A stretch of 63,237 bases of DNA, filler included, from Stramenopiles sp. TOSAG23-6 (GCA_900128565.1; 8 parts of 8 records of this genome joined end to end with filler, not necessarily neighbours in it), one strand, 5' to 3'; positions 11,575-63,181 are shown, numbered from the whole stretch's first letter. Translations and numbers: made by a program. Notes: generated by a model not told the origin, from the sequence alone.

Positions 11575-11680
11575 GTATGTTTTATATGAATTTCTAATTT
11601 AATTTTTTCTGAAATGTTTTTTTCGTACGAAATTTCGTACCTAACAATTTTTTTAGATTTTTTTTTGAAATATTTTTTCA
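11575..11680 (+). other. Introner-like intron, truncated by contig end
   Basis: GTATGTTTT donor (alternative GTATGT at 11571); TTTCGTACGAAATTTCGTACCTAAC core. Confidence 0.8.
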
Positions 11681-11780
11681 NNNNNNNNNNNNNNNNNNNN
11701 NNNNNNNNNNNNNNNNNNNNNNNNTTAATTAATTAANNNNNNNNNNNNNNNNNNNNNNNNNNNNNNNNNNNNNNNNNNNN
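11681..11780. other. Artificial contig linker (same at 23459-23558, 35222-35321, 46984-47083, 58739-58838, 60239-60338, 61739-61838)
   Basis: N44-TTAATTAATTAA-N44, stops in all six frames. Confidence 0.98.
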
Positions 11781-11863
11781 ATATTTCAAAAAAAAAAAAA
11801 AAATTGTTAGGTACAAAATTTCGTACGAAAAAAAAACAAATTTGAAAAAAAATTAAAACATAC
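11781..11863 (-). other. Introner-like intron, truncated by contig end
   Basis: AT|GTATGTTTT donor and conserved core on minus strand. Confidence 0.8.
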
Positions 11864-13190
11864 ATGCAACTAGGACACTGTCGAGAAGCGTCTTTGCTAG
11901 AATATTGAAACGCTTGCTGTAACATTCTACAGCAGCATCTATCTCTCATATATACATTATTTCTTTCATCTGTCTCTTCATTTAATAATGATGAAAGTAT
12001 GGATCTGGATGTCTTTATTTTATCTTCTGTTGTGTGCGTAATATTCTTTGAAAAATATTTCAAAAAATCTAAAAAAAAATGTTAGGTACAAAATTTCGTA
12101 CGAAAAAACAAATCGATTTTTTTGTGAAAAAAAAAATAAAAACATACTTTGCATACTTTGATAATCGGCTCTTTTTCCTCTTTTTTAACATATCATAGTA
12201 TTTTAAACTTGATAGTAATTTTACCACTGGTAAACTATGGCTACTTGTTCCCCCAGTTTCTGTTTTTGGTTTCCACACTGATGTATGTACATTCGGTGAA
12301 TTACCTCTACTATATAAGTCATATTGACCTGGACCAGGTGATGAAGCAACATGTAATTTTTTACTTTTGTTTTTTGGTGACCTCCAACGTCGTCCTTTGA
12401 GTGAGGCGTAATATAACGCTGTTGTATTATACATGCCTGGACCCGGAGTGCTTCCAGCATGTTTTAATTGATTAAGAAGTGTTCCAGAAGAAGTACCAAT
12501 ACCAAATGAAGCACTCCTGGTGTTTTCTGGAAATTTAACGTTATATTCACCTGGGGCTGGCGAAAATTTTGCCTCCATGATCATTCTGTCAACATCAGAT
12601 TTAACTTTTGTTGTATTGAACTTACCTCCTTTACTTAACTGTTTTAGTTTAATATTATATTCACCAGGTCCTGGTTCTCTTTTACTCTTGTAAATAATTT
12701 GATCAAGAGCAGATTTTGGATTGCCAGTAGAAAAAACACAACCAGATTTAGAATAGCCTAATTCAAGTAACTTGGGCTCATATTTATTCTTACGGAGATG
12801 GTTCATGGCTGCAATGCCTCTTTTATTTTGTAATTTGCGTCTTTCGGATTCTACTTGCATAGAAGCTAAGATTTGTGAACGTGTAATAGATTTAATAGAT
12901 TCACTTTGACTTGGTTCTTTCATGGATTGTGTTGAAATTGCACAAGGCTTCCATAGACTATAGTCTATAGCATATTCCGATGCCTGATTTATATCAACAC
13001 TGTCTGAATTTGTTTGAATAACTGATTGATTGGGTTTGTGACTATCAGAGTATGTTGGTGTTGTCTCATTCAAGGAGAATGAATCACTAAAGTCACTGTC
13101 AGCGTTGTTGAGAGCTGCCAATTGTTGCATTGCATGTTGAAACATCAAAGACTCTCCTTTGTGCTTTCGAGAACTTGATTGAGTGATCAT
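11864..13190 (-). CDS. SHIPPO-repeat (ODF3/STPG-like) axonemal protein; exons 13190-12148 and 12040-11864, continues into gap
   Basis: PGPGEY, PAPGEY, PGPGMY, PGPGQY repeats; frame restored by removing intron 12041-12147. Confidence 0.75.
12041..12147 (-). other. Introner-like GT-AT intron (107 nt, phase 2)
   Basis: GTATGT...CAAAGAATAT; joins the only open downstream frame; nearby AGs out of frame; exact 3' end slightly less certain. Confidence 0.7.
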
Positions 13191-13539
13191 CGAATCCTTT
13201 TTATTGAAATGAATCACATACACTGTTTATAAGAAATCACGTAGATAAATGCCATTAAGTACTATAGACATACTGTAATGATGATGATATTATGAGACTT
13301 TAGTGGATGTGGATGGATACTTGTCCTATTGTATAGTAAAAGGAAGAAATCGAGACAGTTTCACCTTTTTCTGCATTTTTAGACGAAAAATCCCCGAAAT
13401 TTGAGATTTTGGAATTCTTTTGAGCCATTCATTCAGTGCATTCTGATTTTCAACAGAAAAAAATAAATCGATACTCACACAGCTACACACAACTACACAG
13501 TCAAAACATCAATATTGGCGTTGTGCATATCGAATTATT

Positions 13540-14055
13540 ATGAGTTTCATGAAAAAAATTGTCTTTCTTCTTTGTTGTACCTTCTTCTTCACCTCCAATG
13601 CGTCAGAAGTTGCTCACAGTGGTGAAAGAGATGCCCTCGCTGGTGACAAACCAGCGTCATCACAAAACGTACAAAGAAGACGTTGGAGAAGAATTCGACG
13701 ACCTGGATTTCTATCACCTGGACATCTACGACCTGGACTTCTACGACCTGGAACTCCACGACCTGGAACTGCTGGAGCTCCTCATGCATGTGTGAATTGT
13801 CATCTAGGCAAGAGACATCGCGGCAGTTGTAAAGGTTGTCATAAATTGAACCCTGCTAAGAGACCCAAGGATGAGATGGAAAAGTTTGAACTTGATATGA
13901 GGGCACTCAACATCGCTGGTGGTAACAGTGACAAACCTCAAAAACCTTCAGAAAAGAAGAATGATCAAGAGAAGACGCCGAAACCTTCTGGTCCAGTGTT
14001 TCATTTTGAATATGAACCGGGGAATTTTAAAGTACAATTCGCTCACGGAGTTTGA
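13540..14055 (+). CDS. Small putative secreted protein with RPG repeats and two CxxCH motifs
   Basis: Signal-peptide-like start; 15-bp repeats encoding xxRPG; CVNCH and CKGCH. Confidence 0.7.
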   Translation: MSFMKKIVFLLCCTFFFTSNASEVAHSGERDALAGDKPASSQNVQRRRWRRIRRPGFLSPGHLRPGLLRPGTPRPGTAGAPHACVNCHLGKRHRGSCKGCHKLNPAKRPKDEMEKFELDMRALNIAGGNSDKPQKPSEKKNDQEKTPKPSGPVFHFEYEPGNFKVQFAHGV

Positions 14056-14295
14056 GTTTAAACATCAAATGAAATAGAAGTTGTATAGAGATATTGTGTA
14101 TAATATATGCGTCATTTATAACCAGTAGAATTTTTCGATAAAATTCAACCCTAACCCTACACGTGTGGGAAGTGTTATAGGTGTAAATGTATAACATCAA
14201 CATCAGATTATATTTACTCGTAGTAACTGTACATAAACTACAAATCAAAAAACTAATGTTAAATATAACTAAAATATTCAATTACTACAATAATA

Positions 14296-14609
14296 TTTTT
14301 TTACACCCCATGAATATGGGTGTTCCAAGTATTTTTATATTGTAAGAGGCGTGGTGTCCGTTCGTTCGTTCGTTCGTTCGTTCGTCCGGTGTCCGATTTC
14401 TAAATTTCGTAGTTAATTGGTACAAAATCAATAAAATATGAGCTGAATTTATACTATATATTCAGACTATAGATATATACACTGACTATATATAGCTGAT
14501 CAAGTAGGATTAATCCATTGTCACTTTAAACCAGGTTTGTACATTTGTAACACTTAAAGAAATAAGAAAAAAACAAAAATGGGGTGTTCAACGTCGAACG
14601 ACAATCTTT
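14296..14609 (+). mobile_element. Helentron-associated (HINE/DINE-1-like) non-autonomous element
   Basis: Inserted in a T-run; subTIR ACACCCCAT 14303-14311 with adjacent inverted ATGGGTGT; (GTTC)n/GTCC microsatellite 14356-14395; 3' subTIR ATGGGGTGT 14579-14587; terminal hairpin GTCG-AA-CGAC 14593-14602. Confidence 0.75.
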
Positions 14610-14666
14610 ATATTAGAGAAAAGCACCAACTCACTTCATTATTATCTATTACTACAATAATATTTT

Positions 14667-17600
14667 TTATATTGGAGAAAACCACCAACTCGCTTCATTA
14701 TTATCTATAGTATCGTCATTATTGCCAAGTGAGACTTCTTGTTTATTACGCCGTTCCATTAACAATAATTCTGTCAAATCTTCTGGTGTGGAATAGTTCA
14801 GGCGAAGAGGCTCTTTACCAGGTTTTTTGTCTATGAAGATATTATTCTTTTCTTGATTTGTTTGATTGACTCTTCTACGGGGATTCACTTGTTTACTATA
14901 CTTTTGATACTTTTCAGCTAATTCTGTTGATTTTTTTTTCCAATAATCAATTTCTTCTTCTGTGTCTACAAGATTTTGTCCATACTTTTTAATGACAGTT
15001 TCCAATGCTTGTGATGCTGTACAATTATTATCCCTTTTTAGCTCTGCTATTTCTTCGCCATGATCAATAGCAAGCTTATATAGGGCAATTTTATGTTCTT
15101 TCCTCTTAGATTGATATGTATCTTTTGCGTCGTTACACATCTTCATTGCTATTTCAAGCTGTTGTTGTTTATTCATTATTTTACTTTCAAATGAGTTTAT
15201 TTCAGATGTATCACGAGGTTTTTCGTGTGGTCTATTTGAATCATAAAAAGCATATCTTCTAACCAACATTTTCATTGCATCTTTCACTTCATTTATTTCT
15301 AACTCGTGTCGCTTCTGCATATCTTCTAATGCAATAGTCATGTCACTATTATGTATATCTACAAGTGTTTCTAGATCAACTGCATATTTCTCTTCCATTT
15401 TGCTCAGTGTACTTATATTTGAAGCATCAGTATCAAGGTTGTGTACATCTTTTACTGCTGTGTGCTTTTGGGTAACATCTTCACAGGTTGCTTTCCATTC
15501 TGATATTTTATGCTCGGCCGATTGAAGCTCTTGTTTATATTTATCTGCAATCTCCAACAATGCCTTCTCGTTTCTGATAGTTTGTTCTTTTATTAACCTT
15601 TCAATGTCTTTTTTGTGGTCAGATTCAATATTCTTTAAAGCGAGAATGTGTGCTTTCTCATCAGCTTCGCGGACTTCATGACTTTTGCGCAACTCTTCAG
15701 TCAAATGTTCTAATTCAAATTTAGTTTGTTGTTCAAACTCATTTGGATTATCTTTTGGCTGTTTATTCGAAAGATTATTAGTAGCTTCAGTAACAGTCTC
15801 CGAGATATTTTGTTTGTGTGGTAGAGCTTTTTTATCGTTGCGTTTTTCATGAAGCTTAAGTAGTTTGTTATACTGTTTTCTTAATGTATCTAATTCAGCT
15901 TTTATTAAAGTTATTTCGTCAGTGTGATAAGCCTCTAGTTGTTGCAGCCCTCGTGTTTTGTCGTACCGATGACTAAGTATCAGGCTTTCTATTTCAGCTT
16001 TATGCTTTTCGGTCATTCCAATTACGACATTTTTCTGTTCAATCTCTACTGATTGTAGTTTCATCTGCAAAAGTTTTAGCTTCGTAGTATTCACTTTGTC
16101 AGATTCATTTCCTTCGGCACGATGCTTACTAGCAGCTATTTCGAGTTCTTTCCTGTAATCATGTGAAATCATATCTAGAGCTGTCTTCTTATCAACGTTG
16201 TGTTTTTCTTTCATTTCGCTGATTTCTTTGTCATGCTTCAATTTAAGTTGTAAGATATCTTCTTTATGTGTTTTCTGTAGATTATACTGAGCTTCTTTAG
16301 CAATCGTAATATCATTCTCTAAACTACGTATTTTAGATCTATGTTTTCGTTCTTGATCTTGAAGTGCAATGGTATGACTCCCTTTGACTTCATCAACACA
16401 GCGACTCAATTCGTTTTTATGCTTTGCGTCAATCTTTTCAAGGATCGATTTATGTTTAGCTTCGATTTCTTCTTGTGTCAGTGAATGTTGCCTGACTATA
16501 TCATTACATTTTTTTTTTATTTCCTCTATTTCAATATTTGCCAATTCGATCTCATCCTCATGACGAGTTTGTAATTCTTGTACTGTGCCCATTTTATCGT
16601 TTTTGTGGCTTTCGACAAGATCAATCAATTCAGTATCATGTTTTTGCATCAAGCTATTCAATGATTTTGAATGTGATAAATCTTTCTTTTTCAATTTTAC
16701 TTTCAGACTAGATACCTCAGAGTCTTTCTCTTTTGTTACTCGTGTAATTTCCTTTCTCTTTTCATCATGTTTTGCCTTCCATTTCAATATTTCTTGTTCA
16801 GTCAAATTAAGTTGTTCACTGTACTTTTCAGCTGTTGCTTCTAATGCTTTTTTTTTATCACAATGAAAATCTTCTTTGTACTTTTCAATTTCTCGCTTAT
16901 GTTCAGACTCAAGTTGACTCAAAGCAATCTCGTGAGCCTTAAGTTTTGAGTTTTGGGTTTCTTTCTGAACCTTCATTTGATTTTCTAAATTACGCAATTC
17001 AGATTTGTGCTGACGTGCTAAACCTTCAAGTGCATCATTTCTATTTCCATCTGTCTCCTCTATAAGCCGCTTCATTTCAGCATTGTGTTGTTTAGCCATC
17101 GTCTCAAGTGCAGCTATGTGTATTGAATCTTGTTCTTGTTTTGATAATTGGTGTTGTTTCATCAGAGAATCATATTTGGATTTTAGATCATTCAATGAAA
17201 ATTCGGCTATTTGCATTTCATCCTCATGTCGACTTTGAAGTTCCTGCAGTGCCCCAGCTTTATCCCCGTGATGACTCTCCACCAATGTTTTTAATTCATG
17301 GGCATGTTTAGCCGATAGTTCGTTCAAAATTACTTCGTGTGATTTTTCCGTATTTTCGAGTTTCAACAAAAAAGCATTCAACTTTTCTTTGCTTTCATTC
17401 TTTTCTTCTTCCAATCTTTTTGTAGCTTCTTCGCAGTTTCTTTCCCATTGAATGATCTCATTTTCCACTGATGTCAATTGATGATTATATTTTTTAGCCA
17501 TTACTTCTAATGCGTTTGCTTTACTACTTCTATTCTCCTTCTTGAATTGTTCAATCTCTTCCTTGTGATCAGACGCTAGCTGAGCTAAAGCAAGTTCGTG

Positions 17601-20600
17601 TGCCTTTAATCTTGAAACATTTTCTTCTCTCTGAAGGGTGAGTTTATTTTCCAGAGCTCGTAGTTCAGATCTGTGTTGACGGGCTAAGTCTTCAAATGCG
17701 TTATTTTTATTACCCTCGAATTCATCCAGAGAACGCATCATTTCTTTGCGATGAAGAGTAGCCATCTTTTCAATGGCAGCTTTGTGTATTGCATCTTTCT
17801 CCTGGAGAGATAATTCATGATCTTCGATAAATTCAGCATATTCTTTTTTAATTTTATTCAAATCATTATCAGCTGATTGTGCAAATTCATCTAAATGAGC
17901 TTGAAGTTTTTCCAATGATTTTGCTTTGTCTTCTTTGTGAAGGATTTTCAGAGCCTTTAATTCGCATAAATGCTCGTCTTTTAAATCTCTCATCTTGTCT
18001 TCGTGGTTTGTTAATGCTTTATCAAGTTTATTTTCGAGTAATTTAACTTTAGTTAAATGAGTATTCTTGATATTTTCATAGTTGGCAAGTTCCTCTCCTG
18101 CCTTTTTTTCCCAATGAGCTGTCTCTGCCTCTGCAGTAGCAAGTTCTTCGTTGTATCTGCTAGCCATCACTTGTAATGCTGTCTTCTTATTATAATGATG
18201 TTCTTCCTTGATTTTTTCAATTTCTTCTTTATAATGAGATTCTAGTTTTGATAGAGCATTTTCGTGTACTTGGACTTTTGCATCAGCTACTTCTTCGCGT
18301 ATTTTATTTTGATTTTCTAAATTACGTAATTCATATTGATGTTGACGCGCCAAATCTTTAAGTTCATTCTTTTTATTTTTGTCTGCGTCATCTAAACACA
18401 TTTTCATTTCAGCTTTATGTTGTTTAGCGATTTTGTCAAGTTCAGTTCTATGAAGTTTATCCTTTTCTCTTTGTGATAATTTTCGCTTCTCTAAAATATC
18501 AGCATATTGTAATTTGATATCACGTAATTGTTTTTCTTGTATTTTTATTTCACCATCATGTCGTTTTTGAAGTTCCTGTAGTGCTAGAGACTTATCCCCA
18601 TGATGACTTTCGATCAGCGCATTCAATTCTTTTGCATATTTATCAGTCATTTCTTTCAATACAGCATCGTGTGCCATTTGAACTTTTTCAATTTTTAAAT
18701 TCATAGCTTTCACGTCTGCTTTCTGGCTTTGGATTACCTCTTTATATTGTTTTTCAGACTTCTCCATTTTTCGCTCCCCTAAAATTAATTTTTCTTCAGC
18801 GATAGCCAGCTCCTTACTATATTTATCAGCCATCGCTTGCATTGCTTTCTTTTTATTGCAATGGTGTTCTTCCTTGAACTGTTCAATCTCTTCTTTATGA
18901 TCAGTTTCAAGTTTGGATAAGGCGCGTTCATATTCCTTCACTTTTGTATCAGTGATTTCTTTATTCAGTTCAAGTTTTCCTTCAATCTCTTTTATTTCAG
19001 ATCGATGTAGCCGCACTAAATCTTCAAGAGCAGCCTTTTTATTACCATCCGCTTCTTCCAAACAATGCTTCATTTCAGATTTGTGTTTTTTGGCCAATTT
19101 CATTATTGCAGTTTCGTGTAGAGTATCCTTTTTTTTTTGTGACAATTTGGAACTCTCTACAAAATCAGTATATTGTTTTTGGATACCATTTAATTTCTTT
19201 TCTTTTATTTTTTGTTCATCATCATGCCGTTTTTGAAGTTCATTTAGTGCGTTTTTCATATCACCTTTATGACTTTCTGCTTGTGTATTAAGTTTATTTG
19301 TAAATGTATCTCTCATTTCTTTCAATACTCGTTCGCGTGTTTCTTCCGTTTTCTTCAGATTTTTGTGCATTAATTTCATTTTTATTTCATGTTCATTCTT
19401 TTGATGTCTACACTCTTGGTTTGCTTCTTTTGTCTTTTCTTGCCATTGGATGATATCATTTTCAGCTTTATCAAGTTGTTTTTTGTATTTTTCATTTAAT
19501 GCATCCACAGCTTTCTTTTTATCACAATGATGATCTTCCTTATATTTTTCGATTTCTTCCGCATGCTGAGTAGTAAGTCTAGCAATGGCAAATTCATGAG
19601 CGGTCATTTCTGCGTCGTATGCTTCCTTATGCATTAAAATTTGTCCTTCAATATCACCAATTTCAGATTTATGCTGCCAAGCAAGAGCTTCAACCTCATC
19701 TTTATGTTTTCCTCGAATTTCGTCTAAACATTTCTTCATTTCGACATCATGATGAATTTTTAACTTGTTAATTTCATCTCTATGCACTCCTTTATTTTTC
19801 TCTACTAATAACTGATGACGCTCAATATCATCTGTATACTTTGCTTTTGCATTCTCTAGTTCAGACTCAATTACAGAAACCTTTTTTTCGTGATCATTTT
19901 TGATTTCTTGTAGTATTTTCTTCATTTGCTTTTCTTTTTTCTTTGCAAGATCATCCAATTCTTCCGTGTGTTTATCATTACTTTTTCGTAATACATTTGC
20001 ATGGGTAATCTCTGCCTTTTCCAACTTCTTTTCCCAAAAGATAGTGCCTATCTTGTATTGCTTTTTACACGCTTTCATTTCGACTTCATGCTTATTTTTT
20101 ACTTCTTCATATTTTTTAGCAAAATTTTCGGTTTTATTTTGCCAACGTATTGCTTCCTTTTCAGCCTCATCAAGTTTATTATTACATTTTTCTGACATAA
20201 TATCTAATGCTTTTGATTTTTCACGACGGTGTTCTTCTTTGATCACTTCAATGCGTTCTTCATGATCCGTGATCATCGCTTCTTTTACATGAGAAAGTTC
20301 AATTTTGTGTGACTCTGATATTTCTTCCATTAATGCGTTATGACGTTCCTCCATCTCTGATGTACGTAATTGCAGTTCATCTCTGTGCTCGATGATGATT
20401 GTTTTAATCTCATCTTCATGAGCTTTCTTCTTTTCCTTCTGTGATATTTGAAGAGCATCACAATGTAGTGTGAAAAAATATGTTTTTTTGATTTGTTTTG
20501 TTAGGTACAAAATTTCGTATGAAAAAAAAATTGATTTATTAGAGAAACGTACTTTTTCCTTAGCAAGACCAAGTGCTTCTTTCGCTGAAGCTCTTTCAAT

Positions 20601-21772: not shown

Positions 21773-23407
21773 TTATTTGACTTTACTCTCCATAGCAATT
21801 TCTTCAGGCTGGACACCAAGTGCTGCATCGCCGTTTATAGAGAGACCACGAGCAACAGAAATATTTTCGCCATTTTGTTGTAAAAATTTAAAATATGAAT
21901 CAGTAATCCTTTTTCGTTCTTTCCGCCGAGTACTTAAATTCCAAGACGTGAGTTGTTGTTGTCGTGCAATTTCATCTTCAGTAAAATTATGCTGTGCCAA
22001 CCATGCCATTGGAGCACACCTAAGAAGAAAACATAACATATCTGTACGCTGTATCGCTTTTGCCGTAGCTCTTTGACGACCTTCTTTTCTATGAAAATTT
22101 GCATACATTTGTAATAATTTGACACCTCGAGGACGCATCAAGGCATCCTTTGTACTGCCTACAAAAGCAGGATGTCTCATTCGATCTAAAAACTCTAAAA
22201 TATCCTTATTTCGTTTATCCTCAACTCGCCGCGCCTCATCCATATTCTTTTGTCTTTCATCATTACAAAGGGTACATCCTAAACCAAATTCAATGCCATT
22301 TGGGGGGTGACGACATCGAAGAGGACAAAGCAGTGGATCATTATGTTGTATCCCAGGACATGCTACATATTCTTCATCATCGTTATCTTTGGCATATGAT
22401 GTGTTTGTATTAAGCCCCGATGATAACTTTTTAACATTTTTACCAGTTTTGTATTTAGCAAGTGTCTTCCATACTCCAGGTTTATGGCAGTTGACACAAA
22501 AATGAGTATTACCCCAACAACAAAATGAAGCGACTGAGCAACAAAATCTACATTTATGTGCAATCCAATCCTTTCCATGTTTTGGGCATTCTTCTACATT
22601 ATCTACAGCACAACTTGGACATAAAAGATCTTTGGCAACATCATCTTCATCTTCTTCGTCTTCATCAGCGGCACCACAACGATAATTTCCACCAAAATAA
22701 GGTCGCTTACACTTATAACATTGATAAAACACAAATTCATGTAACGCAAATTGAAGAGGTTTTTGATAAAAATCACCACCAGGTTTAATCACCGCGGCAT
22801 CTTTATCTAAACCTTCCATTTTGAAACGAAGTAAAGCTCTACGATGAACATCCGCTTCTAATGCAATCATAGGCCCAACAATGTCTTCAACCGACCAATG
22901 ACGAATTTGTTCCTTACACTGTGGACATTTCATAAACTCAAATGACATTCGATGACCAGGATATCCCTTTTCTAATAAATCTCGAACACACGCTGCATGA
23001 AAAAGATGCCCACATTTTAGCTGTATCGTAGGTGCGTTCCCGAGAGCATCCACATAACAAATCGTGCAATATTCTTCACTCATGTTCAAATCACAAGTAA
23101 GGCATGTATTTTGGAAAAATATTTCAAAAAAAATCATTAAGTATACAATTTCGTACTAAAAATAAATTCGAAATTGAAAAAAAAAATAAAAACATACATG
23201 GAGGACACGCTTTTGCAGATGGATCCCAGCCGGGCACGGCACCTTCCCATAAAACTTCTCTCAATTCTATTCCTAATGGTTCATGGTCTGCGGAAGTATT
23301 AAAAAACAAAACGGCAGGAATAATTTCCTCTGAAATTCCATGAAAGAATATACGCTGTCGTTGGCCGTCCACAGAAACGTGAAGTGTACCGCGTCGTTGA
23401 TTGAGAC
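21773..23407 (-). CDS. MYCBP2/Highwire-like RING-Cys-relay E3 ubiquitin ligase, C-terminal part; exons 23407-23198 and 23103-21773
   Basis: RING (CTIC...CGHLFHAAC...CPQC), YQCYKCKRPYFGGNYRC, CPKHG, KCRFCCSVASFCCWGNTHFC, CPLRCRHPPNGIEFGLGCTLC match the MYCBP2 C-terminus. Confidence 0.88.
23104..23197 (-). other. Introner-like GT-AT intron (94 nt, phase 1)
   Basis: CAT|GTATGT...AATACAT|G; gives ACPPCLTC before the RING. Confidence 0.85.
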
Positions 23408-23458: not shown

Positions 23459-23561
23459 NNNNNNNNNNNNNNNNNNNNNNNNNNNNNNNNNNNNNNNNNN
23501 NNTTAATTAATTAANNNNNNNNNNNNNNNNNNNNNNNNNNNNNNNNNNNNNNNNNNNNCAC

Positions 23562-23723
23562 GTATGTTTGCATTAGGAACTTCGATTTTTTTTTTTCGTA
23601 CGAAATTTTGTACCTAACGATTTTTCAAAATTTGCATTAGGAATTTCGATTTTTTTTTCTATGAAAATTTTTGTACCTAACGATTTTTCAAAACCAACTT
23701 TTAAATATTTTTTCACAATACAT
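23562..23723 (+). other. Introner-like GT-AT intron with internal ~63-bp tandem duplication
   Basis: GTATGT start, two TACCTAAC cores, TTCACAATACAT end; upstream exon in gap. Confidence 0.75.
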
Positions 23724-46877: not shown

Positions 46878-46983
46878 GTATGTTTTATATGAATTTCTAA
46901 TTTAATTTTTTCTGAAATGTTTTTTTCGTACGAAATTTCGTACCTAACAATTTTTTTAGATTTTTTTTTGAAATATTTTTTCA
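46878..46983 (+). other. Introner-like intron, truncated (duplicate of 11575-11680)
   Basis: Same sequence as copy 1. Confidence 0.8.
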
Positions 46984-47762: not shown

Positions 47763-48673
47763 ATGCCCCCCCAAAAGAAGAAAGGGCGATGCTCCAAGAA
47801 GAAAGCAGAGAAGATTGATCTACTCATGTTGCTTCCAGATGATGTGCTAAAATTGATGGTTCAGTTACTCACAATAACAGAGCTAGCCAAAATGTCGGAA
47901 GTCTCTAAGCTGCTTAAAAGAATTGCACGACAGGCACCACTGTTTAAAGTTGCTTCGACTGGTCTTAACTTGATCAATACCTTTTACATGTATCAACACT
48001 TTGAAGAAGGAGAAAGTGATGTTGATCCAAGACTTAACACTGTGATCTCATTTAAAAAACTTGATGCATTCTCACAATTTACTGTTTTACTTGAGTTTCA
48101 TCAAAAGTGTGTTAAAAACCTTCGTATCCACTATGTTGATCTTCTTGTTGATGGTTGCAAAAAGACTTGCTTTGGGGAACCAATTGAATTTGTAAGAGAT
48201 GATAGAGCAATGATAGAGTACAATTTGCTTACCATTGAGAGACAAGCCCTCTTGGACAACATAGCCAGTGTGAGTATGGCACAAGATGACCTTTGTTATA
48301 ATGATGGTGAAGGAGGGCCATCTTATTATGCATCTGCATTTCTAGGTGATGTGCACGAACAATGGACTGGATCTTGGTATAGAGATTGGTTCCATTCTGA
48401 GATATTGCGTGGTCACACTTATGATGATGGTTCAGACTATGAGGGTTCTTTTGGTATTGGTAGTGATGAACATTTACGCGAGCTGCTAGTCTCTACAATG
48501 GATAATATTTGTAACTTAATGAGAGGTTTGTTTTATTTTTTTAATTTCGAATTTATATTTTTTCGTACGAAATTTTGTACCTAACGTATTTTTTTTAAAT
48601 ATTTTTCCAAAATACAGGTCGNTCCNAAGNANTGNCNAANGGCACNTATATTCCTAGGAAGACATCTATTTGA
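47763..48673 (+). CDS. F-box protein; exons 47763-48525 and 48618-~48673 (end uncertain, N-rich)
   Basis: F-box-like LLMLLPDDVLKLMVQLLTITELAKMSEVSKLLKRIA. Confidence 0.75.
48526..48617 (+). other. Introner-like intron, canonical GT-AG variant (92 nt)
   Basis: AG|GTTTGT...core...CCAAAATACAG|GT. Confidence 0.85.
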
Positions 48674-52010: not shown

Positions 52011-52336
52011 TTGAAGGCAAATGTAAGTCACGTAACACGAGAAAGATATATATGTAATAGCAATGTAGCTACTGTATTTTTGTGTGTTTGTGCACTTTAC
52101 ACGTCGGCGAGTTTGGATATGGCGCATCCAAAATTTCAAAATTTTCGAAAAATTCCGAAAAATTCAAAAAAACTTCATCATACAAGATACCCGGTAACGT
52201 TCAGTTCAGCGAAAATCGGATAAATCGTAGTAGGCAACAAGGTACTGTATTTATCACTCTTTAAAGTCACGTATATTAACAGAGAAATTAAAGTATTGCT
52301 CGGTACATAATAAGTTCACTCGAATCTCGAGTCAAT

Positions 52337-53672: not shown

Positions 53673-56248
53673 TTAAAAGGGTAAATGTCGTTGTACAAGA
53701 TGTGGTCCAATTTCTTCAAAATGTTGCTTTGTAAGACATAATGCAGAAAATGTACTCATTGAACCCATAATAGAGCCACCTTTCCATGCTCCATACTCTG
53801 GAGCACTTACTATATTTGTTTTTTGTAAAGGTACTTTCGCAGAAATCTCTTGTGAAAAACGTTGTTGAAAACCTTTGAATTTCGTGCTTCCTCCACTAAG
53901 AATTATATTATTATAAAGGTCATTTTGTATCTCCATCTTTTCCTCTATACTTCCAGGAGGTTTGATTCCGTCTATTGCATTGGCTATTAATGTATGGACA
54001 CCTACAATTTTACTACGATTTCCTATTGTTTTCTCACCCCATCTTCCTTTCTGTTTCCATAACAAAGGTTTGAGTTTCTTATACGTGTGAGTTGACGTAT
54101 CACTTTTAGGATACTGGATTAGCATGTCGTCAAACAGAGAAGGATTGAAAAGACACTCTGGGCCACGAATTCTTTCATTTCCAAATTTTATAATATTGCC
54201 ATCTGGTAATTCGTAGCCTGGTAATTTACGTTCTCCTTTTTCAAGAAGAACAGCACAATCCCGTTTATATATATCATCACATGTGTCCCCTACGGCTACA
54301 TAGCAAAGTGAGTGCTTGACATGTGATGCTAAATGATATTCTAAAAATTTTGGGACTCGGGTGCTTACTTCATATGCACCTTCTGATCGGGCAACAGAAG
54401 CAGCTTCACGCATTCTTTTGTCTATATGGCCATGTAACCAATCAGTAATCCTCTTGCCACCAAATGGTAATCTTCGAAGTCCTCTGTGTAATAACTCTGC
54501 ATCGAAAAAGGGTGCAGCCCATGTGACACCGCCTCCACAATCAAGAACACAGCCAGTGGTACGTCCCGTCGCGTAGAGGGAGAGCTGTGAATGACATCCT
54601 AGAAAAAGACCTGGCATGTTAACTTCATCAAAGAGAACTGTTGCAAGTTTTTCATAGTAACCAGGAAGTTCAGCCGGATGAACCGTAAAAATTAAAGCAC
54701 GATCATTTGCTGTTGTTGTGAGAGGTTTTTCGATTAAATGGTTTACATATGCTGCTAACTCCGACCATCCCCTATCATTCTGCCCAAATCCTAGTTTATA
54801 ATCTACAACTCCATGTATGGTGAAAAATATATTTACTACCTGTATTGTTTGAACATTCGTTAGGTATGGTATTCTCTATACAAAATAAAAAAAATAAAAA
54901 AAATAAAAAAAAATAAAAAAAAATGAAAAAAAAATGAAATTCATAATGAAATCGTACAGTGTCTTCGTCTACATGCGTCATGCCACGAATACTTCCCGTA
55001 TCATAAAGTCTTCGAACATTCATTCGTTGATGTGAATAGCACGCATCCCAACCAAACCGAAATTTACTTTTTTTACCTTCCGGTATTAACATTTTTGATT
55101 GAGGCATGAATCCTGTAAAGTTCAATGGACAGTTTTGTCGAGGGATTCCAATACACGTTTGATCAGTGATCCAAGGTTCGCATGTATTGTGAAAAAAAAA
55201 TGAAATCATGAAAAAAATCGTTAGGTACGAAATTTCGTACGAAAAAACAATTAATATATCCATTTGATGATGAAAACGTACATGTTCCTGCCATACCAAC
55301 TTTAGTGATTTCACTTCCACAATCCATTACAATGCTTGGATTATTATACCATTTAATTTTAAATCTTCGTTTAAATTCAAAACGAGAAATGTAACCACTT
55401 CCATCTTCATCAAAATCTTCAAAATCGCTCAAAGTGCCCATTTTTGCTTTAAAAAAAGCTTTTTTAGAAATAAAACCACTACCATCAGTATCAATATTTG
55501 TAAATATTTCATCTCTTCGTTTTTCTTCATCTCTTTCACGTTTTTTATCGCGTTGTCGCACATTTTTATGTCGAATATCTAGATTTTGTTCAGTCGTATT
55601 TGAATTTAAATTTGAATTTACACTTGAATTTAAATTTGATTTAGCATTTGATTCAGTATTTGAATGAACATTATCTATATCCTTAGATGTATCCTGAGAT
55701 GCTTTGAATATTTCTTCATCAGACGATGAAGTTTCGTTTTCCCACTGGTAGAGTTTTTCTTCTACTTCTTCTTTCAATTTGGGCATTAGAAAAGCTGTAT
55801 CTCGTAATTCAAGCATTTCAATTACTTTGCTCTCCTTCTGAAATCCTTCACTATCTGCTTTGCCAGGTTTTGTTGACATAACTAACGGGGTATCAAATGC
55901 ATGGTTAACTTCATCTACACCTGCACCCGAAGCCACTAGTGCCTTGACACATGTCCAAAATCCATTTTTACACGCTAAATGAAGAGGTGTATTTCCATCA
56001 GAAAGCTCCTTCGCATTCAAGTCAGTCATACTTAAACTGGAAAGAAAATTTGTCATTTTGTAATTTCCTTTATTGACTGCAGTTAGAAGAGCATTCATTT
56101 TTGACTGGGGAAATGCGTTTACGTCCATTCCAGCTGCAAGAATAATAGCCACAGATTCCACATCGTCTTTTCGTGCGGCTTGCAATAGTTTCATACCCAT
56201 CACCTTTTTCTCCATTTCAGTCAATGGACTTGCTGTTATAATACTCAT
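53673..56248 (-). CDS. Ankyrin + EF-hand + actin-related fusion protein (~776 aa); exons 56248-55282, 55181-54958, 54812-53673
   Basis: GNTPLHLAC; DTDGSGFIS and DEDGSGYIS; actin motifs VMDCGS, SLYATGRTTGCVLDCGGG, YELPDG, LYNNIILSGGST, AWKGGSI. Confidence 0.85.
54813..54957 (-). other. Divergent family intron, GT-AT (145 nt); in-frame alternative AG at 54840
   Basis: GTACGA...ATACCTAAC...ATATTTTTCACCATACAT; both ends preserve frame. Confidence 0.65.
55182..55281 (-). other. Introner-like GT-AT intron (100 nt, phase 1)
   Basis: ACAT|GTACGT...TTCACAATACAT|G; gives AGTCEPWITDQTCIGIPR, colinear with actin [18 protein letters not shown]. Confidence 0.9.
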
Positions 56249-56690
56249 TGTATACTGTTTCTAGAGTTATATGTAACACGTCAAGTCTTCATTTTTTACT
56301 CGCATTCACTTCCAATATTTATACACTTGCTAGTAGTAGGATATATACAAACAACGAAATCAACGGACATACGTACGAATAAACGGCCGAAATCCTACTA
56401 CCACTAACCCTAGCTACTAGAATCTGATGGGTCGATACCCAGGTACCCTAACTACTGCTATTATATTGAATCCATCCAACTATTTTGATTTGATAGACAC
56501 ATTTTTATCATGATTACTATTAAATTTTGAAGAAGAATCAAATTAAAGAAACAAAATTCTTGCTGATTCCAAAAGAATATTTTTTTTATTTTCAATATAG
56601 AAATGAGGGGGGTGGCACTTGAGCAAATTAATAAATTCGTTTTTGTAGCGAAATAGTACGAAATAAGTGCACTTGAAATGCATTTCCAAG

Positions 56691-57170
56691 TTATTGCGCA
56701 TTGGTCGCAACGAGATATCCTCCCCAAGCAGACAATGCCAACATGAGTACTTCTGGTACATAGTGCATTGGGTACTTCACTGGCAATTTATCCCCGAGAA
56801 AGTTGAACTTGGCGTTCCATGGGTACAGCAAACCAACAGCTAAAGAAGATGCAGCTCCAATCTTAACAGCAACTGCTGGTGGTAATAAAGTCATAGAATA
56901 ACACAATGCCAGGAGAGACACAGATTGACCTCGAATCCTATAATGTGAACATAAAAAATGTATAGAGAAAACACTTTGTTAGTAATAAATTGGCATTTCA
57001 AAAGTGATGAAAAGTACGCCGAAGACAATAACATACCAGAACTTCAACATTGGAGTAGCAGGAGTTTCAAAGTGGTCTGTCACCATTTTCGCTGGAGTGA
57101 AGAGCATCTGTAAACCATACAGTCCAAAGGTGCCAGCGAAAACCTTCACGTAAGTAGTTGCAAGAGACAT
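56691..57170 (-). CDS. Small membrane protein (~126 aa); exons 57170-57037 and 56937-56691
   Basis: Two hydrophobic ORFs joined in frame (MLKFW-IRGQSV) by a canonical intron. Confidence 0.8.
56938..57036 (-). other. Conventional GT-AG intron (non-family)
   Basis: GTATGT...TACTAAC...TTCACATTATAG. Confidence 0.88.
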
Positions 57171-57496: not shown

Positions 57497-58685
57497 ATGG
57501 GACACGTTAAATATGGAAAAAGTGCTCCTAAAAACGACAGGTCTGCGTTTGCTCGAATTCCTGATGCTGTTCTTCGCCTTTTTATTGCAATGGCTCCCGC
57601 AGAGACACTGGGTAGACTTTGTGCTTTGAGTCATTTCCGACAAATTGCAAAAGAAGACACATACTGGCGACCCTTATTTATGAAAACATATGGTCATAAA
57701 AAAGGCAAAAATGGTGATAGCGTTCAAAAGAGCAATCAATTTGAAGGGCAGGTTGCTGAACTAGTTCGTCGCTTCATCGAAATCACGAATGCTGAACGCC
57801 AAACAGCTTACTTTTACCTTGAGCTTGCACAAGGTAACAATATATCTACTCTACCAACTTTGGAAAATGCAATCCAGATTTATTATAATAGTGCACAAGC
57901 ATTACCAGCTTCTTCATGGGTTCCTGCTCGCTTACCTGGACTTTCATCAACGTCTATACGTTTTATTTGTTTTTCAATTTTTTATCTAATTTTTTTTTCA
58001 TATGAAATTTTGTACCTAACAAATTGTACAAAAAAAAAAATTTCACAATATATTCAAAGAAAGACTCTGATTCAAACACGCTTCTTTCTTCTGGAATAAA
58101 AGTTTCGCAAACAACCAAAGAACGAACGTTCAAAATGGTTGCAGGTGGTTTAGAATTCCGACCAACAACAAAGTATTATTATCGTTTTGCTCGAAAATTT
58201 GTGAAGTCAGCCATTCGTGATGACTATATTACGATTCGATTTGACGCACCTAACCCTAACCCTACCTCTAATAGTGAACAATTATTAGGAATTGATGGAA
58301 ATTGTGGAAATGGTTTAATTTCAAAATTAGATAAACCAGCGCGAAGAAGAGCAGGGATTAAGAAAGTAAAGGTAAAAAGAAAAGACCGCGATGATCATAA
58401 TAAGAAACGAAAGGATGGAACTGTTCTGAGGAGTACTACACCGATACGTTTTTTTTTTTTTTCAATTTTTTATCTAATTTTTTTTTCGTACGAAATTTCG
58501 TACCTAACAAAAATTGTATGAAAAAAAAATATATATTTTTTCACAATATATATACGTCGTGACAGTAATACGCCACATAGTGACGTAAGCAATGGTCGAT
58601 TATCTCCTCCCACCATCATTACAAATGGACGATTTTTACCAGAATATAATGCTTTGAAAACACCAAGTGTTCTTCAAGTAGGTAT
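57497..58685 (+). CDS. F-box-like plus UBA-like protein, N-terminal exons 57497-57955, 58054-58443, 58552-58685
   Basis: FARIPDAVLRLFI...LCALSHFRQIAKEDTYWR; VRRFIEITNAERQTAYFYLE...LENAIQIYY; frames joined by AT-AT introns. Confidence 0.7.
57956..58053 (+). other. Introner-like AT-AT intron (98 nt, phase 0)
   Basis: ATACGTTTT...TACCTAAC...TTCACAATATAT; restores frame. Confidence 0.75.
58444..58551 (+). other. Introner-like AT-AT intron (108 nt, phase 0)
   Basis: ATACGTTTT...TACCTAAC...TTCACAATATAT; 6-nt repeat ATACGT makes the boundary slideable. Confidence 0.72.
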
Positions 58686-58738
58686 GTATGTTTTATTTTT
58701 TTTTCAAATTTGAATTTTTTTTTCGTACGAAATTTTGT
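58686..58738 (+). other. Introner-like intron, truncated by contig end
   Basis: AT|GTATGTTTTAT...TTTCGTACGAAATTTTGT. Confidence 0.8.
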
Positions 58739-58838
58739 NNNNNNNNNNNNNNNNNNNNNNNNNNNNNNNNNNNNNNNNNNNNTTAATTAATTAANNNNNN
58801 NNNNNNNNNNNNNNNNNNNNNNNNNNNNNNNNNNNNNN

Positions 58839-60213
58839 TTGATTTTGAAAATTTGTTATATTGACAAAATTGTGCATATTTTTCATGTGATTTGGCAAGT
58901 TTTATTTGAAATGTAGCTATTTGTAATGTCCATTGATGTTTTTGTATTTGCTGTTTTTGTTGTATTTCAGTATTTTTTTGTTCATTAGGGTTAGGGTTTA
59001 CAGGGTTAGGGTCAACAATTATTTTTTTTTTTTGTATTGAAAATAAATTTTGTTTTTTTTCTTTAGTTGATTTTTTTGTCATACAATCAACATTTTCAAG
59101 AGTACAAATAAGCACAGGACTTGATGAATCATTTAAATTCATTGGAATGACAAAAGCTAAAAAATCAATTTTTAATTCTACAAAAATTCGTTTTGAATGA
59201 ATCATTGCATCAGCAAAAATATTTCGTGATTCTTGAATTGATTCTATTAATTTACGGTTTGTAAGTTTTTTAGGTTTTTCAGGTTTTTTAGGGTAATTAT
59301 CTGAGTCTGGAATATTGTTTGTAGTGTTGTTGTTTGTATATATTTCACTATTTTTTATATTTTTTTCAATATTNTTTTCAATATTTTTTTCAATGTTTTC
59401 AATTTCAATATTTTTTTCAATTTCTGGAGTTGAAAAAAATAAAAGTAAAAATTCAATACATCGTTTGTTATACACAAATAAAATAGGAGAAATTTGAAAT
59501 TGAACATTCATATCTAATANATCATCTGGAGGATTTTTATGAATGAAAATACGAGCTATACATTTTCTATTTGTACCTTTTTCGTGTTTTTCATGTTTTT
59601 CGTGTTTTTCATGTTTTTGATATTTTGGTTTAATTATATATTTAAATTCATTGTTTGAATTATTTCCATTATTTTCACTATAATNATCATTAATATTGTC
59701 ACAAACCTGTAATGAATCCAAAAGTAGTTCAATAGTATTTGACATAATCATTTTTTTATAATGATATGATCCTTCAAACATAATCATCAAAGACGATTTT
59801 TTATCAAATTTTTCATTTTTAGCAAAATCATCAAAACTTTTCGTACGAAATGTTGTACCTAACGATTTATCAAAAAAATGTTCAGTCACTAGTGATATTC
59901 TACAACATTTTAGATGTAACTGAATATCAGTCATAATATAATCTATAGGTACCTGATAAGTATTGATATTCACAGCATCTTGTGAGCTTAATGTAGTGAT
60001 ATCCATACCCAATTTTTGACTTAAAGAAAAAATATCTACTTCAAAATCATCATCAATTCCATGTATTTTAGAAAAATATTTCAAAAAAATTCTAAAAAAT
60101 TTGTTAGGTACAACATTTANTATNAAAAAAAAATTCGATTTTTTTGCNAAAAAAANAATAAAACATACATTCTCCCCAATGGCCCAATTGTACCAACCTG
60201 CCCAAGAATAATC
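58839..60213 (-). CDS. VPS13: VPS13-family lipid-transfer protein, internal fragment; exons 60213-60169 and 60060-58839
   Basis: SWAGWYNWAIG, NPPDD...ISPILFVYNKRCIEFLLLFF, FVIPMNLND...VLICTLENV resemble the VPS13 N-terminal region (recognised by eye). Confidence 0.7.
60061..60168 (-). other. Introner-like GT-AT intron (108 nt, phase 0)
   Basis: AT|GTATGT...CTAAAATACAT|G; restores frame. Confidence 0.85.
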
Positions 60214-60238
60214 CTATATTGTGAAGGGAAAAAAAAAA
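60214..60238 (-). other. 3' end of an intron ending in AG
   Basis: TTCACAATATAG, family-like 3' motif; rest in gap. Confidence 0.6.
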
Positions 60239-60338
60239 NNNNNNNNNNNNNNNNNNNNNNNNNNNNNNNNNNNNNNNNNNNNTTAATTAATTAANNNNNN
60301 NNNNNNNNNNNNNNNNNNNNNNNNNNNNNNNNNNNNNN

Positions 60339-61642
60339 TTTCTTTCCTTTAAACGAGACTTTGAACATTCAGTTTCTGTTGAATGTAGACGTGTTATGAG
60401 TGCTTGTTCTTCCTGTTGAGTATTTCGTTTTGATTTTGAATGAGTACGAAGAACTGAAATTTCTTTGTTTTTCATTGATTTCTTTGAACTACTCCAGATT
60501 GGCCTTTTCGGTGTTGATTTTATAATTTTGTGTTCTGATCTGCTTTTAGTTTTTCGGTGTGGATGTACTTTTTTTTTTCTCTCTCCATTTTGATAATGAC
60601 TTTTATGTCCATTTTTATAATAACTTTTATATCCATTTTGATGTCTATCTTCAGACACTAACCATCTTGCTTTATTACACCCAATACCATCTACATTATC
60701 AAATTCATTGATTTCAATGGGACCACCGTTTACCCAACTATTACTCTGTCCACTTTCTTTAAAATCATCCCCCAAACGTAAAAATGAAGCATTTGTATCA
60801 TCAAAGTTATTGTCCACTGCTAAAATCCGTTTATGTATGTTCGCTTCAAAAGATCTTTCTTCTATTTTATCATCCAAACTTTGCTGTAGCTTCCATAAAT
60901 CCGAAATTGGCGGACGATTTCTTTCATACTCATCTGCTACATCCAAAATTGGTGGACGGTTTCTTTCATACTCATCTGCTCCACTTTTTTGCTTTCCTTG
61001 TTTTTTCTTTGGTTTTGTTGTCTGTTTCAAAGACCGATGGATAATTTTCGTATTCTGAATTGCGCTGATTCCTGATTTATTTTTATCTTTTCGACTTGAA
61101 TGGCTAAAACTGGAGCTATGATTTTTTGTTCCATCATAATCCTGCCTATGAGTTTTTTTGTCATTTATGAAACTTCGACTTTGTACTTTTTTTTTTCTTC
61201 TTTTTCTTTTTTTTATACCGATGTTTTTATCATTATCTAAGGTTTTCATGACACTATGGAGAATTGAAGTGTCATCGTTATCAAGCACAGCGTTCGCAAC
61301 AATACAAAGTTGTTCAATTTTTCTTGCTTTCCATTTTTCTTTTTCCCAATTTGTATTATGTACTATATCATTGTAGTTTTTCTCAGATAAACCTAATGAT
61401 AACTCCTCCATTTCAACCTCTACCTTTGCAGCATTTGCCAATGGGGATGTTAATATAGGTTCAGCGGGTATCGGCCCCTCTTCTACTAATGTTTCATTTA
61501 TTTCTGAATAAATTTGTTTCTCTAATTGTTTTATTTTAGATTCCATTACACTTTGCTGTTTTTTAGAGCTGTTTTTTATTTCCATAATCATATTATGAAG
61601 ACGTGATGAATCTTCGGACTGATCAGATAATTGCAATTTCAT
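60339..61642 (-). CDS. Unknown Lys-rich protein fragment
   Basis: >430-aa ORF; 42-bp duplication ADEYERNRPPI; contig has 55-bp terminal direct repeat. Confidence 0.6.
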
Positions 61643-61838
61643 TGCATCGAGTTTTTGTTGGAGAGCTGCATTTTTAATTACTTTTTCTTTCCTTTAAACG
61701 AGACTTTGAACATTCAGTTTCTGTTGAATGTAGACGTGNNNNNNNNNNNNNNNNNNNNNNNNNNNNNNNNNNNNNNNNNNNNTTAATTAATTAANNNNNN
61801 NNNNNNNNNNNNNNNNNNNNNNNNNNNNNNNNNNNNNN

Positions 61839-63181
61839 AGCAGCATTTGAACGATACATTGCACCATTTTCAGCAGCATTTGAACGATACATTACACCAT
61901 TTTCAGTAGAAAATTGTAAGTGGTTTTGTTTCCTCATTGATGATATTTCCCCTCGAAATGACGATTCAGATGATGATCCAAGAAATGGCAATGATTTGCT
62001 ACACTTTGGAGCATTCATGATTTCATCGAATGCCTCTCTGAATGATCCTCTTCGATTTGAAGTAGATCGTCGCTTGGTCAAACTTGACATATACTATAAA
62101 AAATATAAAAATTAAAAATTGTTTAGGTACAANATTTCNTATNAAAAAAAATCCGAAACATTCATGTGTAAAATGTATCGAAATAAAAACTAAAGAAAGC
62201 TGTTAGGTACAACATTTCGTATGAAAAAAAAATCCGAAACATTCATGAGTAAAATGTACATAATGCTTGTTGGCGAAGTATCAAACCGTTTAAACTNGTA
62301 ATTCGGTATTCTTGCTCTCTGTTCCATCTCCTTTACAGCCATATCAAAATCAGAAAGACCGCCAGGATTAGGTGGAGGGAATTCATAAGAACATCTTTCA
62401 CGATGTATTGTAAAAAAAATTGAAATTTTTGAAAAAATGTTAGCTTAGCTAAAGATGAAATACAAAATAATTATTAGGTACAAAATTTCGTATGAAAACA
62501 AATATAAAGTACACTTGGATGAGCCCGTTGGACACTCTCTACAGTTGCACCTTCGGCAAAAATTGCATCTAATTTTGCTTCAGTTTCTTTTTTCGTCAAA
62601 CCACCAAAGAATCTCGAACCAAAATTCAAGTGTAAAGGAAATCTCTCAGCGGGTAGACTATTACATGTATTGTGAAAAATATTTTTTTTTGTAAAATTTG
62701 TTAGGTACGGAATTTCGTACGAAAAAAAAATTTAGACAAAAAATTGAAAAAAATAAAAGATACATGGAAAACCATTATCCAACAATGATAGTACTTCTCT
62801 ACGTTTAGGCTTCTCATTTTTTTCGTGATATTTGACAAACGATTCAAATGCATAGTGAAAAAATATTTAAAAAATTTTTAATTTGTTTGGTACAAAAATG
62901 TTTTGAAAAAAAATAAATTTAAAATTCATGCTGAAAAACATATTCCAAAAAAACAAAAAAAAAAAGTTTTTGTTTTTTTTGTTAGGTACAAAATTTCGTA
63001 TGAAAAAAAAATTAAAATTCATGATGAAAAACATACACGCACTTTCATTAACTTCGACAACATCTTCAGATACAGATATCTTTTTGATTTTCTTGTTATA
63101 GTATTTACCACTTGTTTTAACGAGAACTTGGGACTTTATTTCGAAAATATGAGGATACTTTGAAAGAAAATCTTTTACCAT
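61839..63181 (-). CDS. Unknown protein fragment; exons 63181-63037, 62847-62764, 62664-62513, 62402-62260, 62088-61839
   Basis: Continuous open frame only after removing four GT-AT introns. Confidence 0.72.
62089..62259 (-). other. Introner-like GT-AT intron with internal duplication (171 nt, phase 2)
   Basis: AT|GTACAT...two cores...TATAGTATAT|G; the TAG just upstream leads to a stop. Confidence 0.78.
62403..62512 (-). other. Introner-like GT-AT intron (110 nt, phase 0)
   Basis: GTACTT...TACCTAAT...GCTAAC...TTACAATACAT. Confidence 0.8.
62665..62763 (-). other. Introner-like GT-AT intron (99 nt, phase 1)
   Basis: CAT|GTATCT...TACCTAAC...TTCACAATACAT|GT. Confidence 0.85.
62848..63036 (-). 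other. Introner-like GT-AT intron with internal duplication (189 nt, phase 1)
   Basis: GTATGT...two cores...TTCACTATGCAT. Confidence 0.8.

Follow-up and report, generated by a model that had tools for sequence, protein, structure and literature searches.

Gene content and repeated interruptions of the analysed DNA

The DNA analysed here, called the window throughout, is a 63,237-base stretch from Stramenopiles sp. TOSAG23-6 (GCA_900128565.1) that consists of eight contigs joined through N44-TTAATTAATTAA-N44 linkers rather than of a single molecule. It displays a G+C content of 25-40% and long open reading frames (ORFs) separated by spacers of 100-300 nt, and its genes carry short interruptions that all belong to one repeat family of introner-like elements, i.e. 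mobile non-coding introns. A family profile made from 14 copies produced 30 hits in the window, and curation of these left 18 complete elements of 90-189 nt together with six copies cut by contig ends, five of them unique and one a duplicate. Two of the contigs, 1 (1-11680) and 4 (35322-46983), duplicate each other at 99.8% identity, with three mismatches and one 18-nt gap, and their features therefore count twice. A first-pass annotation of the same DNA had described 18 complete, gene-sense interruptions with a GTAYGT-like donor and a CTAAC-type branch motif, 17 of them ending in YAT, and this description was borne out. The YAT ends comprise 13 CAT (12 ACAT and one GCAT) and four TAT, the sole AG-ended complete copy (48526-48617) terminating in ACAG. 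The 5′ ends are GT in 16 of the 18 copies, mostly within a GTAYGT-like motif, and ATACGT in the two copies at 57956 and 58444. The terminal pairs of the family are accordingly GT..AT in 15 copies and AT..AT in two.

Architecture of the repeat family

The copies align over their whole length and share one order of features: GTAyG followed by a T-run, an A/T-rich stretch, the palindrome CGTACGAAATTTYGTAC, CTAAC, a second T-run and a terminal CA(C/A)AATACAT. The ACCTAAC branch motif is fused to the 3′ arm of the palindrome; in the 15 copies for which the script chose the core motif, its distance to the 3′ end is 33-47 nt. The 24-nt core TTCGTACGAAATTTCGTACCTAAC, which contains CTAAC, was matched 16 times at three mismatches or fewer and not once in 100 shuffles, and the core pattern had no match in viral contigs or in prokaryote genome contigs. 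The median identity between two copies is 69% and the highest is 91%, the family comprising two or more subfamilies, and an internal tandem duplication that includes the branch core extends three copies to 162-189 nt (23562-23723, 62089-62259 and 62848-63036). Contigs frequently break within copies, as expected for a high-copy repeat. Furthermore, contigs derived from other copies part from the window exactly at 55181/55182 and immediately ahead of 58684 (loose ends 55181 and 58684), and thus the repeat unit ends where the inferred intron ends. One further complete copy, GTATGT..CACAATACAT, was found within an ORF of L001, a metagenome contig from JGI, where by the present reading its removal restores the frame. 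The adenine at position -2 is kept in 18/18 copies, or 19/19 with L001, and the last base alone is altered, to U. Just past the L001 gene there are short telomere-like CCCTAA/TTAGGG repeats (~2260-2330 in minus-strand numbering) and, further along, a unit of about 60 nt is repeated in tandem (~1880-2030). A 34-nt core fragment at 59838-59871 (+) lies antisense within the minus-strand VPS13-like ORF, where it is read in frame (..DKSLGTTFRTKS..), and may be the exonised remnant of an antisense insertion.

Orientation, reading frame and the position of the 3′ end

All 23 unique copies, 18 complete and five cut, lie in the sense orientation relative to the adjoining long ORF. Removal from GT to AT joins the flanking open frames in 15/15 testable AT-ended copies, each with a one-in-three probability by chance. 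From the 17 AT-ended copies this test left out 23562, with 3 nt of upstream exon, and 20463, whose 90 nt contain no stop in the frame of the gene. The first-pass annotation had stated that the frame is restored in all 16 testable cases; here it is restored in every testable case, 15 in number. If the copy at 20463 were retained, its protein of more than 2200 residues would be lengthened by 30 and not broken. Phases 0, 1 and 2 are represented by seven, five and four copies, respectively, so that the presence of all three phases claimed previously is confirmed. At the level of whole genes, removing four introns turns 61839-63237 into a single ORF, removing three turns 30912-34106 into an ORF of 956 residues, removing two yields 780 residues in an actin-related gene and removing one yields 512 residues in a RING gene. 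On sequence grounds GT..AT, with AT..AT in two copies, is the only reading that fits all copies.

The junctions of the three-intron gene were compared with P0121, a homologue of 581 residues that displays 35% identity. P0121 runs gapless over the junction 32954/33066, with 30 residues on both sides (CHS.DHM to IEGD), and over the junction 32229/32328, with 19 residues (ETM to LL). The third junction (32534-32644) also aligns to P0121, adjoining a large gap. All 31 AGs between the branch motif and +150 (+125 for 32534-32644) were scored as acceptors against P0121. Out of these, 28/31 shift the frame and run into 27 or more stops and the three in-frame sites score 521-589 versus 609 for AT. When the acceptor was moved in 3-nt steps, AT was uniquely best for 32229-32328. 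If donors may shift by as much as 30 nt and acceptors by as much as 60 nt, many in-frame AT-AC and GC-AG pairs arise in such AT-rich DNA, and the frame was therefore examined with the consensus donor held fixed. In 8/13 GT-start copies judged in this way (60061 lying outside this count) no AG up to 60 nt from the 3′ end is both in frame and free of stops, and in the two AT-start copies AC sites 12 nt downstream are in frame. In the actin-related gene the AT junction matches actin profile positions 7-42 gapless over 36 residues with the G.P motif kept, a match of only 7 bits; in-frame alternative acceptors come within ~2 bits of the AT model, so that the profile score does not decide between them and only the gapless N-terminal match is of help. 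Searches around other junctions returned no related locus in metagenome contigs for the 400-residue exon 31029-32228, no protein with words in common with the actin-related gene's middle exon, no match among proteins of 525-1672 residues for the 955-residue exon 27939-30803, and no conserved Pfam domain spanning most junctions.

Representation of the elements in DNA and RNA

In the independent DNA metagenome X3 the element bins reach depths of 6442-18000 versus ~6.7 for single-copy sequence, an excess of ~1000-fold, whereas in the polyadenylated (polyA) RNA run X10 they lie at 2-7.5, like expressed single exons (1.7-7.5). The element is therefore ~1000-fold depleted in polyA RNA relative to DNA, a contrast of three orders of magnitude between rough values. 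An element retained in thousands of mRNAs would place the depth of the core far above that of one gene; this is not observed, and thus the elements are probably removed from mRNA. A few short polyA contigs carry unspliced copies. The non-polyA RNA runs X6 and X7 resemble DNA and show the same core excess. Records 12 and 14 of X3 contain the same insertions at the same sites, at a depth equal to that of the flanks. The many joints observed between 58020-58553 and 58683-58701 are cross-matches between element copies.

An ordinary GT-AG intron in the same DNA

A polyA contig joins 56936 to 57036, skipping 99 nt that a DNA metagenome contig keeps. The skipped segment interrupts a small membrane-protein gene (~56690-57170, minus strand) and has the same GTATGT donor as the elements, a perfect TACTAAC and, as counted here, 40 nt from branch motif to 3′ end. 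It is spliced at AG in polyA RNA, and the organism has thus not simply exchanged AG for AT. No other convincing intron outside the family was found in the window, where 17 AT ends stand against two AG ends. The first-pass annotation had proposed a relaxed or altered 3′ splice-site specificity with AT as the majority acceptor. The part of this proposal that stands is that the interruptions behave as AT-ended introns, as indirectly indicated by the 15/15 restored frames, the colinearity with P0121, the rejected AGs and the polyA depletion; the AT end belongs to one mobile family, and AT as the organism-wide majority is not supported, the sole non-repeat intron found in the window being GT-AG.

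Coordinates of the elements and neighbouring genes

The positions of the elements, of the ordinary intron and of the linkers are collected in Table 1.

Table 1 Family copies, comparator intron and linkers, numbered from the first base of the window
Feature	Position	Strand	Termini, phase and remarks
Element/intron	12041-12147	-	GTATGT..GAATAT; phase 2; boundaries unslidable; AGs 28 and 5 nt before end, out of frame
Element/intron	20463-20552	-	GTACGT..CTACAT; 90 nt; phase 0; open in frame; boundaries unslidable
Element/intron, diverged core	23104-23197	-	GTATGT..ATACAT; phase 1; RING-finger gene, 512-residue frame on removal
Element, tandem duplication (two branch cores)	23562-23723	+	GTATGT..ATACAT; 3 nt from contig start
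Element/intron	27841-27936	+	GTACGT..CACAGTACAT; phase 1; flanks 704 + 955 open codons; AG 5 nt before end, out of frame
Element/intron	32229-32328	-	GTATGT..ATACAT; phase 0; gapless vs P0121; AT single best in-frame acceptor (609 vs ≤600)
Element/intron	32534-32644	-	GTAAGT..ATACAT; phase 2; 6/6 AGs from branch motif to +125 out of frame
Element/intron	32954-33066	-	GTATGT..ATACAT; phase 2; gapless vs P0121; AG 12 nt past branch motif out of frame
AG-ended member	48526-48617	+	GTTTGT donor, ACAG end; downstream exon N-filled (48618-48646)
Element/intron, actin-related gene	54813-54957	-	GTACGA..ATACAT; phase 0; in-frame AG 27 nt before end, possible acceptor
Element/intron, actin-related gene	55182-55281	-	GTACGT..ATACAT; phase 1; junction gapless to actin profile 7-42
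Element/intron	57956-58053	+	ATACGT..ATATAT (AT..AT); phase 0; flanks 153 + 155 open codons
Element/intron	58444-58551	+	ATACGT..ATATAT; phase 0; 6-nt direct repeat ATACGT after element
Element/intron, VPS13-like gene	60061-60168	-	GTATGT..ATACAT; phase 0; upstream exon only 15 codons
Element, internal duplication	62089-62259	-	GTACAT..GTATAT; phase 2
Element/intron	62403-62512	-	GTACTT..ATACAT; phase 0; boundaries unslidable
Element/intron	62665-62763	-	GTATCT..ATACAT; phase 1; direct repeat CATGTA at flanks
Element, internal duplication	62848-63036	-	GTATGT..ATGCAT; phase 1; boundaries unslidable
Copy cut by contig end	11613-11680	+	duplicate at 46916-46983
Copy cut by contig start	11798-11863	-	
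3′ half of copy, cut by contig end	23408-23458	-	..AAAATACAT
Copy cut by contig end	35110-35219	+	
5′ half of copy, cut by contig end	58686-58738	+	other-copy contigs diverge just before 58684
Ordinary intron, non-family comparator	56937-57035	-	GTATGT..TACTAAC..TATAG; skipped by polyA RNA contig, kept by DNA contig
Linkers	11681-11780, 23459-23558, 35222-35321, 46984-47083, 58739-58838, 60239-60338, 61739-61838		

Pfam identified in the window a class-V aminotransferase, a SHIPPO-repeat (flagellar) protein, RING, IQ, EF-hand, UBA-like and VPS13-like proteins, and an actin-related protein preceded by ankyrin and EF-hand domains. The actin-related gene (53673-56260, minus strand) forms one ORF after removal of its two introns, with ankyrin repeats and EF-hands at the N-terminus, an unusual domain arrangement for an actin-family protein. 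The only close protein in a large database, P0001, corresponds to the actin-related gene and carries the EukProt label GSMAST32 'assembled CDS' and is identical to the window at 256/256 positions where aligned; given this identity it can be taken as the deposited gene model of the same genome, and its label points to MAST-3, uncultured marine stramenopiles. The P0001 model (window 53673-54875, minus strand) begins past the AT introns at an internal Met, exon residue 87, and omits everything upstream of the AT introns, which suggests that the underlying annotation did not see them. P0001 also lacks two segments that run from GT to AG in frame, one of 39 nt (54342-54380) and one of 135 nt (53949-54083), both devoid of a branch motif; the annotation, guided by homology, has probably introduced these gaps as artefacts. 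Groups of single N in readable sequence (48618-48646, 7322-7385, 32261-32268 and 62133-62143) indicate low-quality base calls. Inside an ORF of 561 residues (50478-52163, minus strand) the segment 50669-51342 has almost no DNA-metagenome depth within covered surroundings, and repeats at 50799-50842 and 50932-51166 were skipped in metagenome placement; the segment is probably an internally repetitive coding region.

Mode of removal and alternative explanations

The elements are probably a family of mobile, introner-like sequences of ~100 nt, inserted in the sense orientation into coding exons of a MAST-3-labelled marine stramenopile and removed by the major spliceosome with an AU 3′ splice site. 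Each copy brings its own signals, namely a yeast-like GTAYGT 5′ site, ACCTAAC, a T-run and the terminal ..CA(C/A)AATACAT. The repeat unit and the intron are one and the same, and exact GT-to-AT removal returns an uninterrupted frame. The second step of the major (U2-type) spliceosome would then take A(-2)U(-1) in the elements and AG in ordinary introns. The GTATGT donor, CTAAC, the T-run and the spacing of 33-47 nt argue for the major spliceosome: as in U2-type introns, the 5′ site is GTRNGT-like and CTAAC with a pyrimidine run lies tens of nt from the end, the AT end of 17/18 copies being the departure from a terminal AG. What specifies AT may be the pairing of the first bases with the last, either +1..+3 with -3..-5 or G1.U-1 together with U2-A-2.

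Several observations weigh against this interpretation. In RNA runs X6, X7 and X10, no contig over 48647-58738 bridges 54813-54957, 55182-55281, 57956-58053 or 58444-58551, a missing cover that is evidence in neither direction, and the exact cut after AT is therefore inferred. Contigs of X6 and X7 run from exon into element, representing either unspliced RNA or carried-over DNA, and the depth comparison is built on rough contig depths summed over organisms. At the other two P0121 junctions the site at -3 scores 615 and 609 versus 609 for AT. Of the 13 judged copies, five have an in-frame AG no more than 60 nt from the end, and an AT..AC intron shifted by 2 nt would give the same mRNA in 8/18 copies, including all three introns tested with P0121. 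By the present count six copies have an AG between branch motif and AT that splicing at AT would have to pass over; these include the out-of-frame AGs that the first-pass annotation had placed at 12041, 27936, 32954, 60061 and 62089, all of which are present, and an additional in-frame AG in 54813-54957. Predicted RNA structure is weak (z -0.4 to -3.8), with only two of five copies clearly exceeding shuffles. Finally, the ordinary intron skips two ACAT, at +21 and +35 as counted here, and thus ACAT alone does not make an acceptor. The spliceosome still uses AG, and the use of AT needs more context than the dinucleotide and goes with the element.

The proposal that the elements are U12-type introns, removed by a minor spliceosome that tolerates GT-AT and AT-AT, is unlikely. 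The first-pass statement that U12-type introns use only GT-AG or AT-AC is incomplete, since GT-AT (7) and AT-AT (12) are listed as rare non-canonical U12-type pairs in animals, and AT-AN and GT-AT introns are reported to be competent for U12-type splicing, in the part of PMC1557818 drawn on here. These are exactly the pairs displayed by the family, and hundreds of minor introns are described in an excerpt on the stramenopile Blastocystis (PMC10639083). In contrast, the 5′ sites follow the consensus GTAyGTTTT and not RTATCCTT, and the GTATGT donor recurs, with a perfect TACTAAC, in the GT-AG intron validated by RNA. The U12-type branch site TCCTTAAC lies ~10-26 nt from the 3′ end; the elements carry ACCTAAC at 33-47 nt and a T-run. 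Thus, the family shares its terminal pairs with U12-type introns but is U2-like in 5′ site, branch motif, spacing and T-run, and it is a high-copy family where animals, by the same partial source (PMC1557818), possess a handful of such introns.

Removal at the RNA level with the cut set by paired ends, a mechanism put forward for the non-conventional introns of euglenids and the introners of Amoebophrya, is distinctly unlikely. Complementarity of the ends extends over 3-6 nt, with +1:-3 and +2:-4 paired in 18/18 copies, +3:-5 in 16/18 and +4:-6 in 10/18; G.U pairs occur in three copies, the two ATACGT copies show an A1/U-3 double change and both pairing registers also fit A1. Direct repeats of at least 3 nt cross the borders in 10/18 copies versus 7.7% by chance, and like features are reported for Amoebophrya and euglenids in the portions of PMC7789003 and PMC11282704 cited. 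However, the pairing amounts to only 3-4 bp, the end helix is absent from the predicted minimum-energy folds of five copies, and the two A1 copies, being neighbours of one subfamily, represent a single event. In addition, the GTAYGT and CTAAC signals are strong in every copy and do not differ from their counterparts in the validated spliceosomal intron, and the uniform borders and the T-run depart from the variable borders, missing pyrimidine tract and stable end helix of the euglenid type.

Canonical borders, either as AT..AC shifted 2 nt upstream or through cryptic or downstream AGs, with no AT acceptor at all, are very unlikely. The eight shift-compatible copies, the five with an in-frame AG and the AG-ended member could be accommodated by such borders, but AT..AC is impossible in 10/18 copies, which have no AT before GT or no AC at -4/-3. 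Moreover, all AGs at the three introns tested with P0121 are out of frame or 20-88 lower in score, most judged copies (8/13) have no nearby in-frame AG and the repeat unit itself ends in ..CAT. That nothing is precisely removed, the interruptions being disabling transposon insertions, assembly or amplification artefacts or somatically eliminated DNA, is scarcely credible: the draft assembly is of low quality, with N runs and duplicate contigs, and non-polyA RNA runs into the elements, but the same sites are occupied at flank depth in the independent metagenome, L001 holds another copy, the uniform sense orientation and frame restoration are unexpected of random disabling insertions or DNA-level excision, and the ~1000-fold polyA depletion stands against retention.

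Removal of the elements by the major spliceosome may be extended to a broader and clearly more tentative proposal. In this free-living stramenopile the U2-type spliceosome would routinely ligate exons at A-U in perhaps at least 1000 mobile introns, and at AG elsewhere, with the site set by G1.U-1/A1-U-1 or by +1..+3:-3..-5 pairing in place of the G1-G(-1) contact, the second step having been rewired by or for selfish introns. Rfam gave no hit in the window. Regarding the way in which copies spread, neither terminal inverted repeats nor target-site duplications of fixed length, as in DNA-transposon introners, were found: the border repeats are 0-6 nt long and missing in three copies, and the flanks tend to ..(C)AT|G(TA).., like the joined ends of the element. 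Target preference or microhomology fits these repeats better than a fixed duplication, and both direct insertion and reverse splicing are compatible with them.

Few signals in eukaryotic genes are as constant as the AG that ends U2-type introns. If the elements are spliced as proposed, high-copy introns with normal 5′ and branch signals and an AU end would provide a clean natural test of site choice in the second step, and a stramenopile would be added to the few lineages that pair mobile introns with relaxed splice-site rules. If the second step is indeed rewired, the organism would be a natural system in which selfish introns have changed the recognition of the 3′ site, or had it changed in their favour. 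Gene prediction that admits only GY-AG introns splits or shortens genes here, as in the P0001 model, and introner surveys built on annotated (GY-AG) introns would miss such families.

Comparison with known intron families

Transposon-like introns with non-canonical borders are already known from Fritillaria, Amoebophrya, Polarella and euglenids (PMC11282704, PMC7789003, both cited in part), and canonical introners from Micromonas, Aureococcus and many others (PMC9860276, in extract). What appears to be new here, judging from the copies themselves, is an introner family with AT ends. The literature searches uncovered neither a described GT-AT intron family nor an account of non-canonical introns in MAST-3, and a term search of the searchable parts of the MAST genome papers PMC5778133, PMC8163842 and PMC12614181 found no mention of non-canonical introns, their supplementary tables possibly holding intron statistics.

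The family resembles introners that lack target-site duplications and terminal inverted repeats in comprising many related short non-coding introns at unrelated gene sites, which bring their own splicing signals, in which the repeat unit is the intron and which show no fixed duplication; in contrast, those introners are GY..AG and the family described here ends in AT in 17/18 copies. Similarly, the introners of Micromonas and Aureococcus, which resemble miniature inverted-repeat transposable elements, are short elements that have inserted in great numbers into the genes of marine protists and are removed as introns, and Aureococcus is itself a stramenopile (PMC11282704, in the part used). By the same account they have terminal inverted repeats, fixed target-site duplications that make a splice site, and canonical borders, unlike the 3-6 nt of end complementarity, the 0-6 nt repeats and the AT end found here. 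The introners of Amoebophrya, also a marine protist, share repeated introns, complementary ends and direct repeats of 3-5 nt over the borders, but they have no consensus dinucleotide, carry inverted repeats of 8-20 nt and come from a genome in which no U1 small nuclear RNA was found, as far as the cited part of PMC7789003 goes; the present family displays uniform GT..AT ends and a donor of the U1/U6 type. Fritillaria borealis likewise has transposon-like introns with non-AG 3′ ends, served by an adapted U2 spliceosome, and few canonical introns (PMC11282704, same part). Its borders are diverse, AG-AC and AG-AT being the commonest, with a 5′ end other than GT, whereas in the family described here the 5′ and branch sites are strongly canonical and the last base alone departs.

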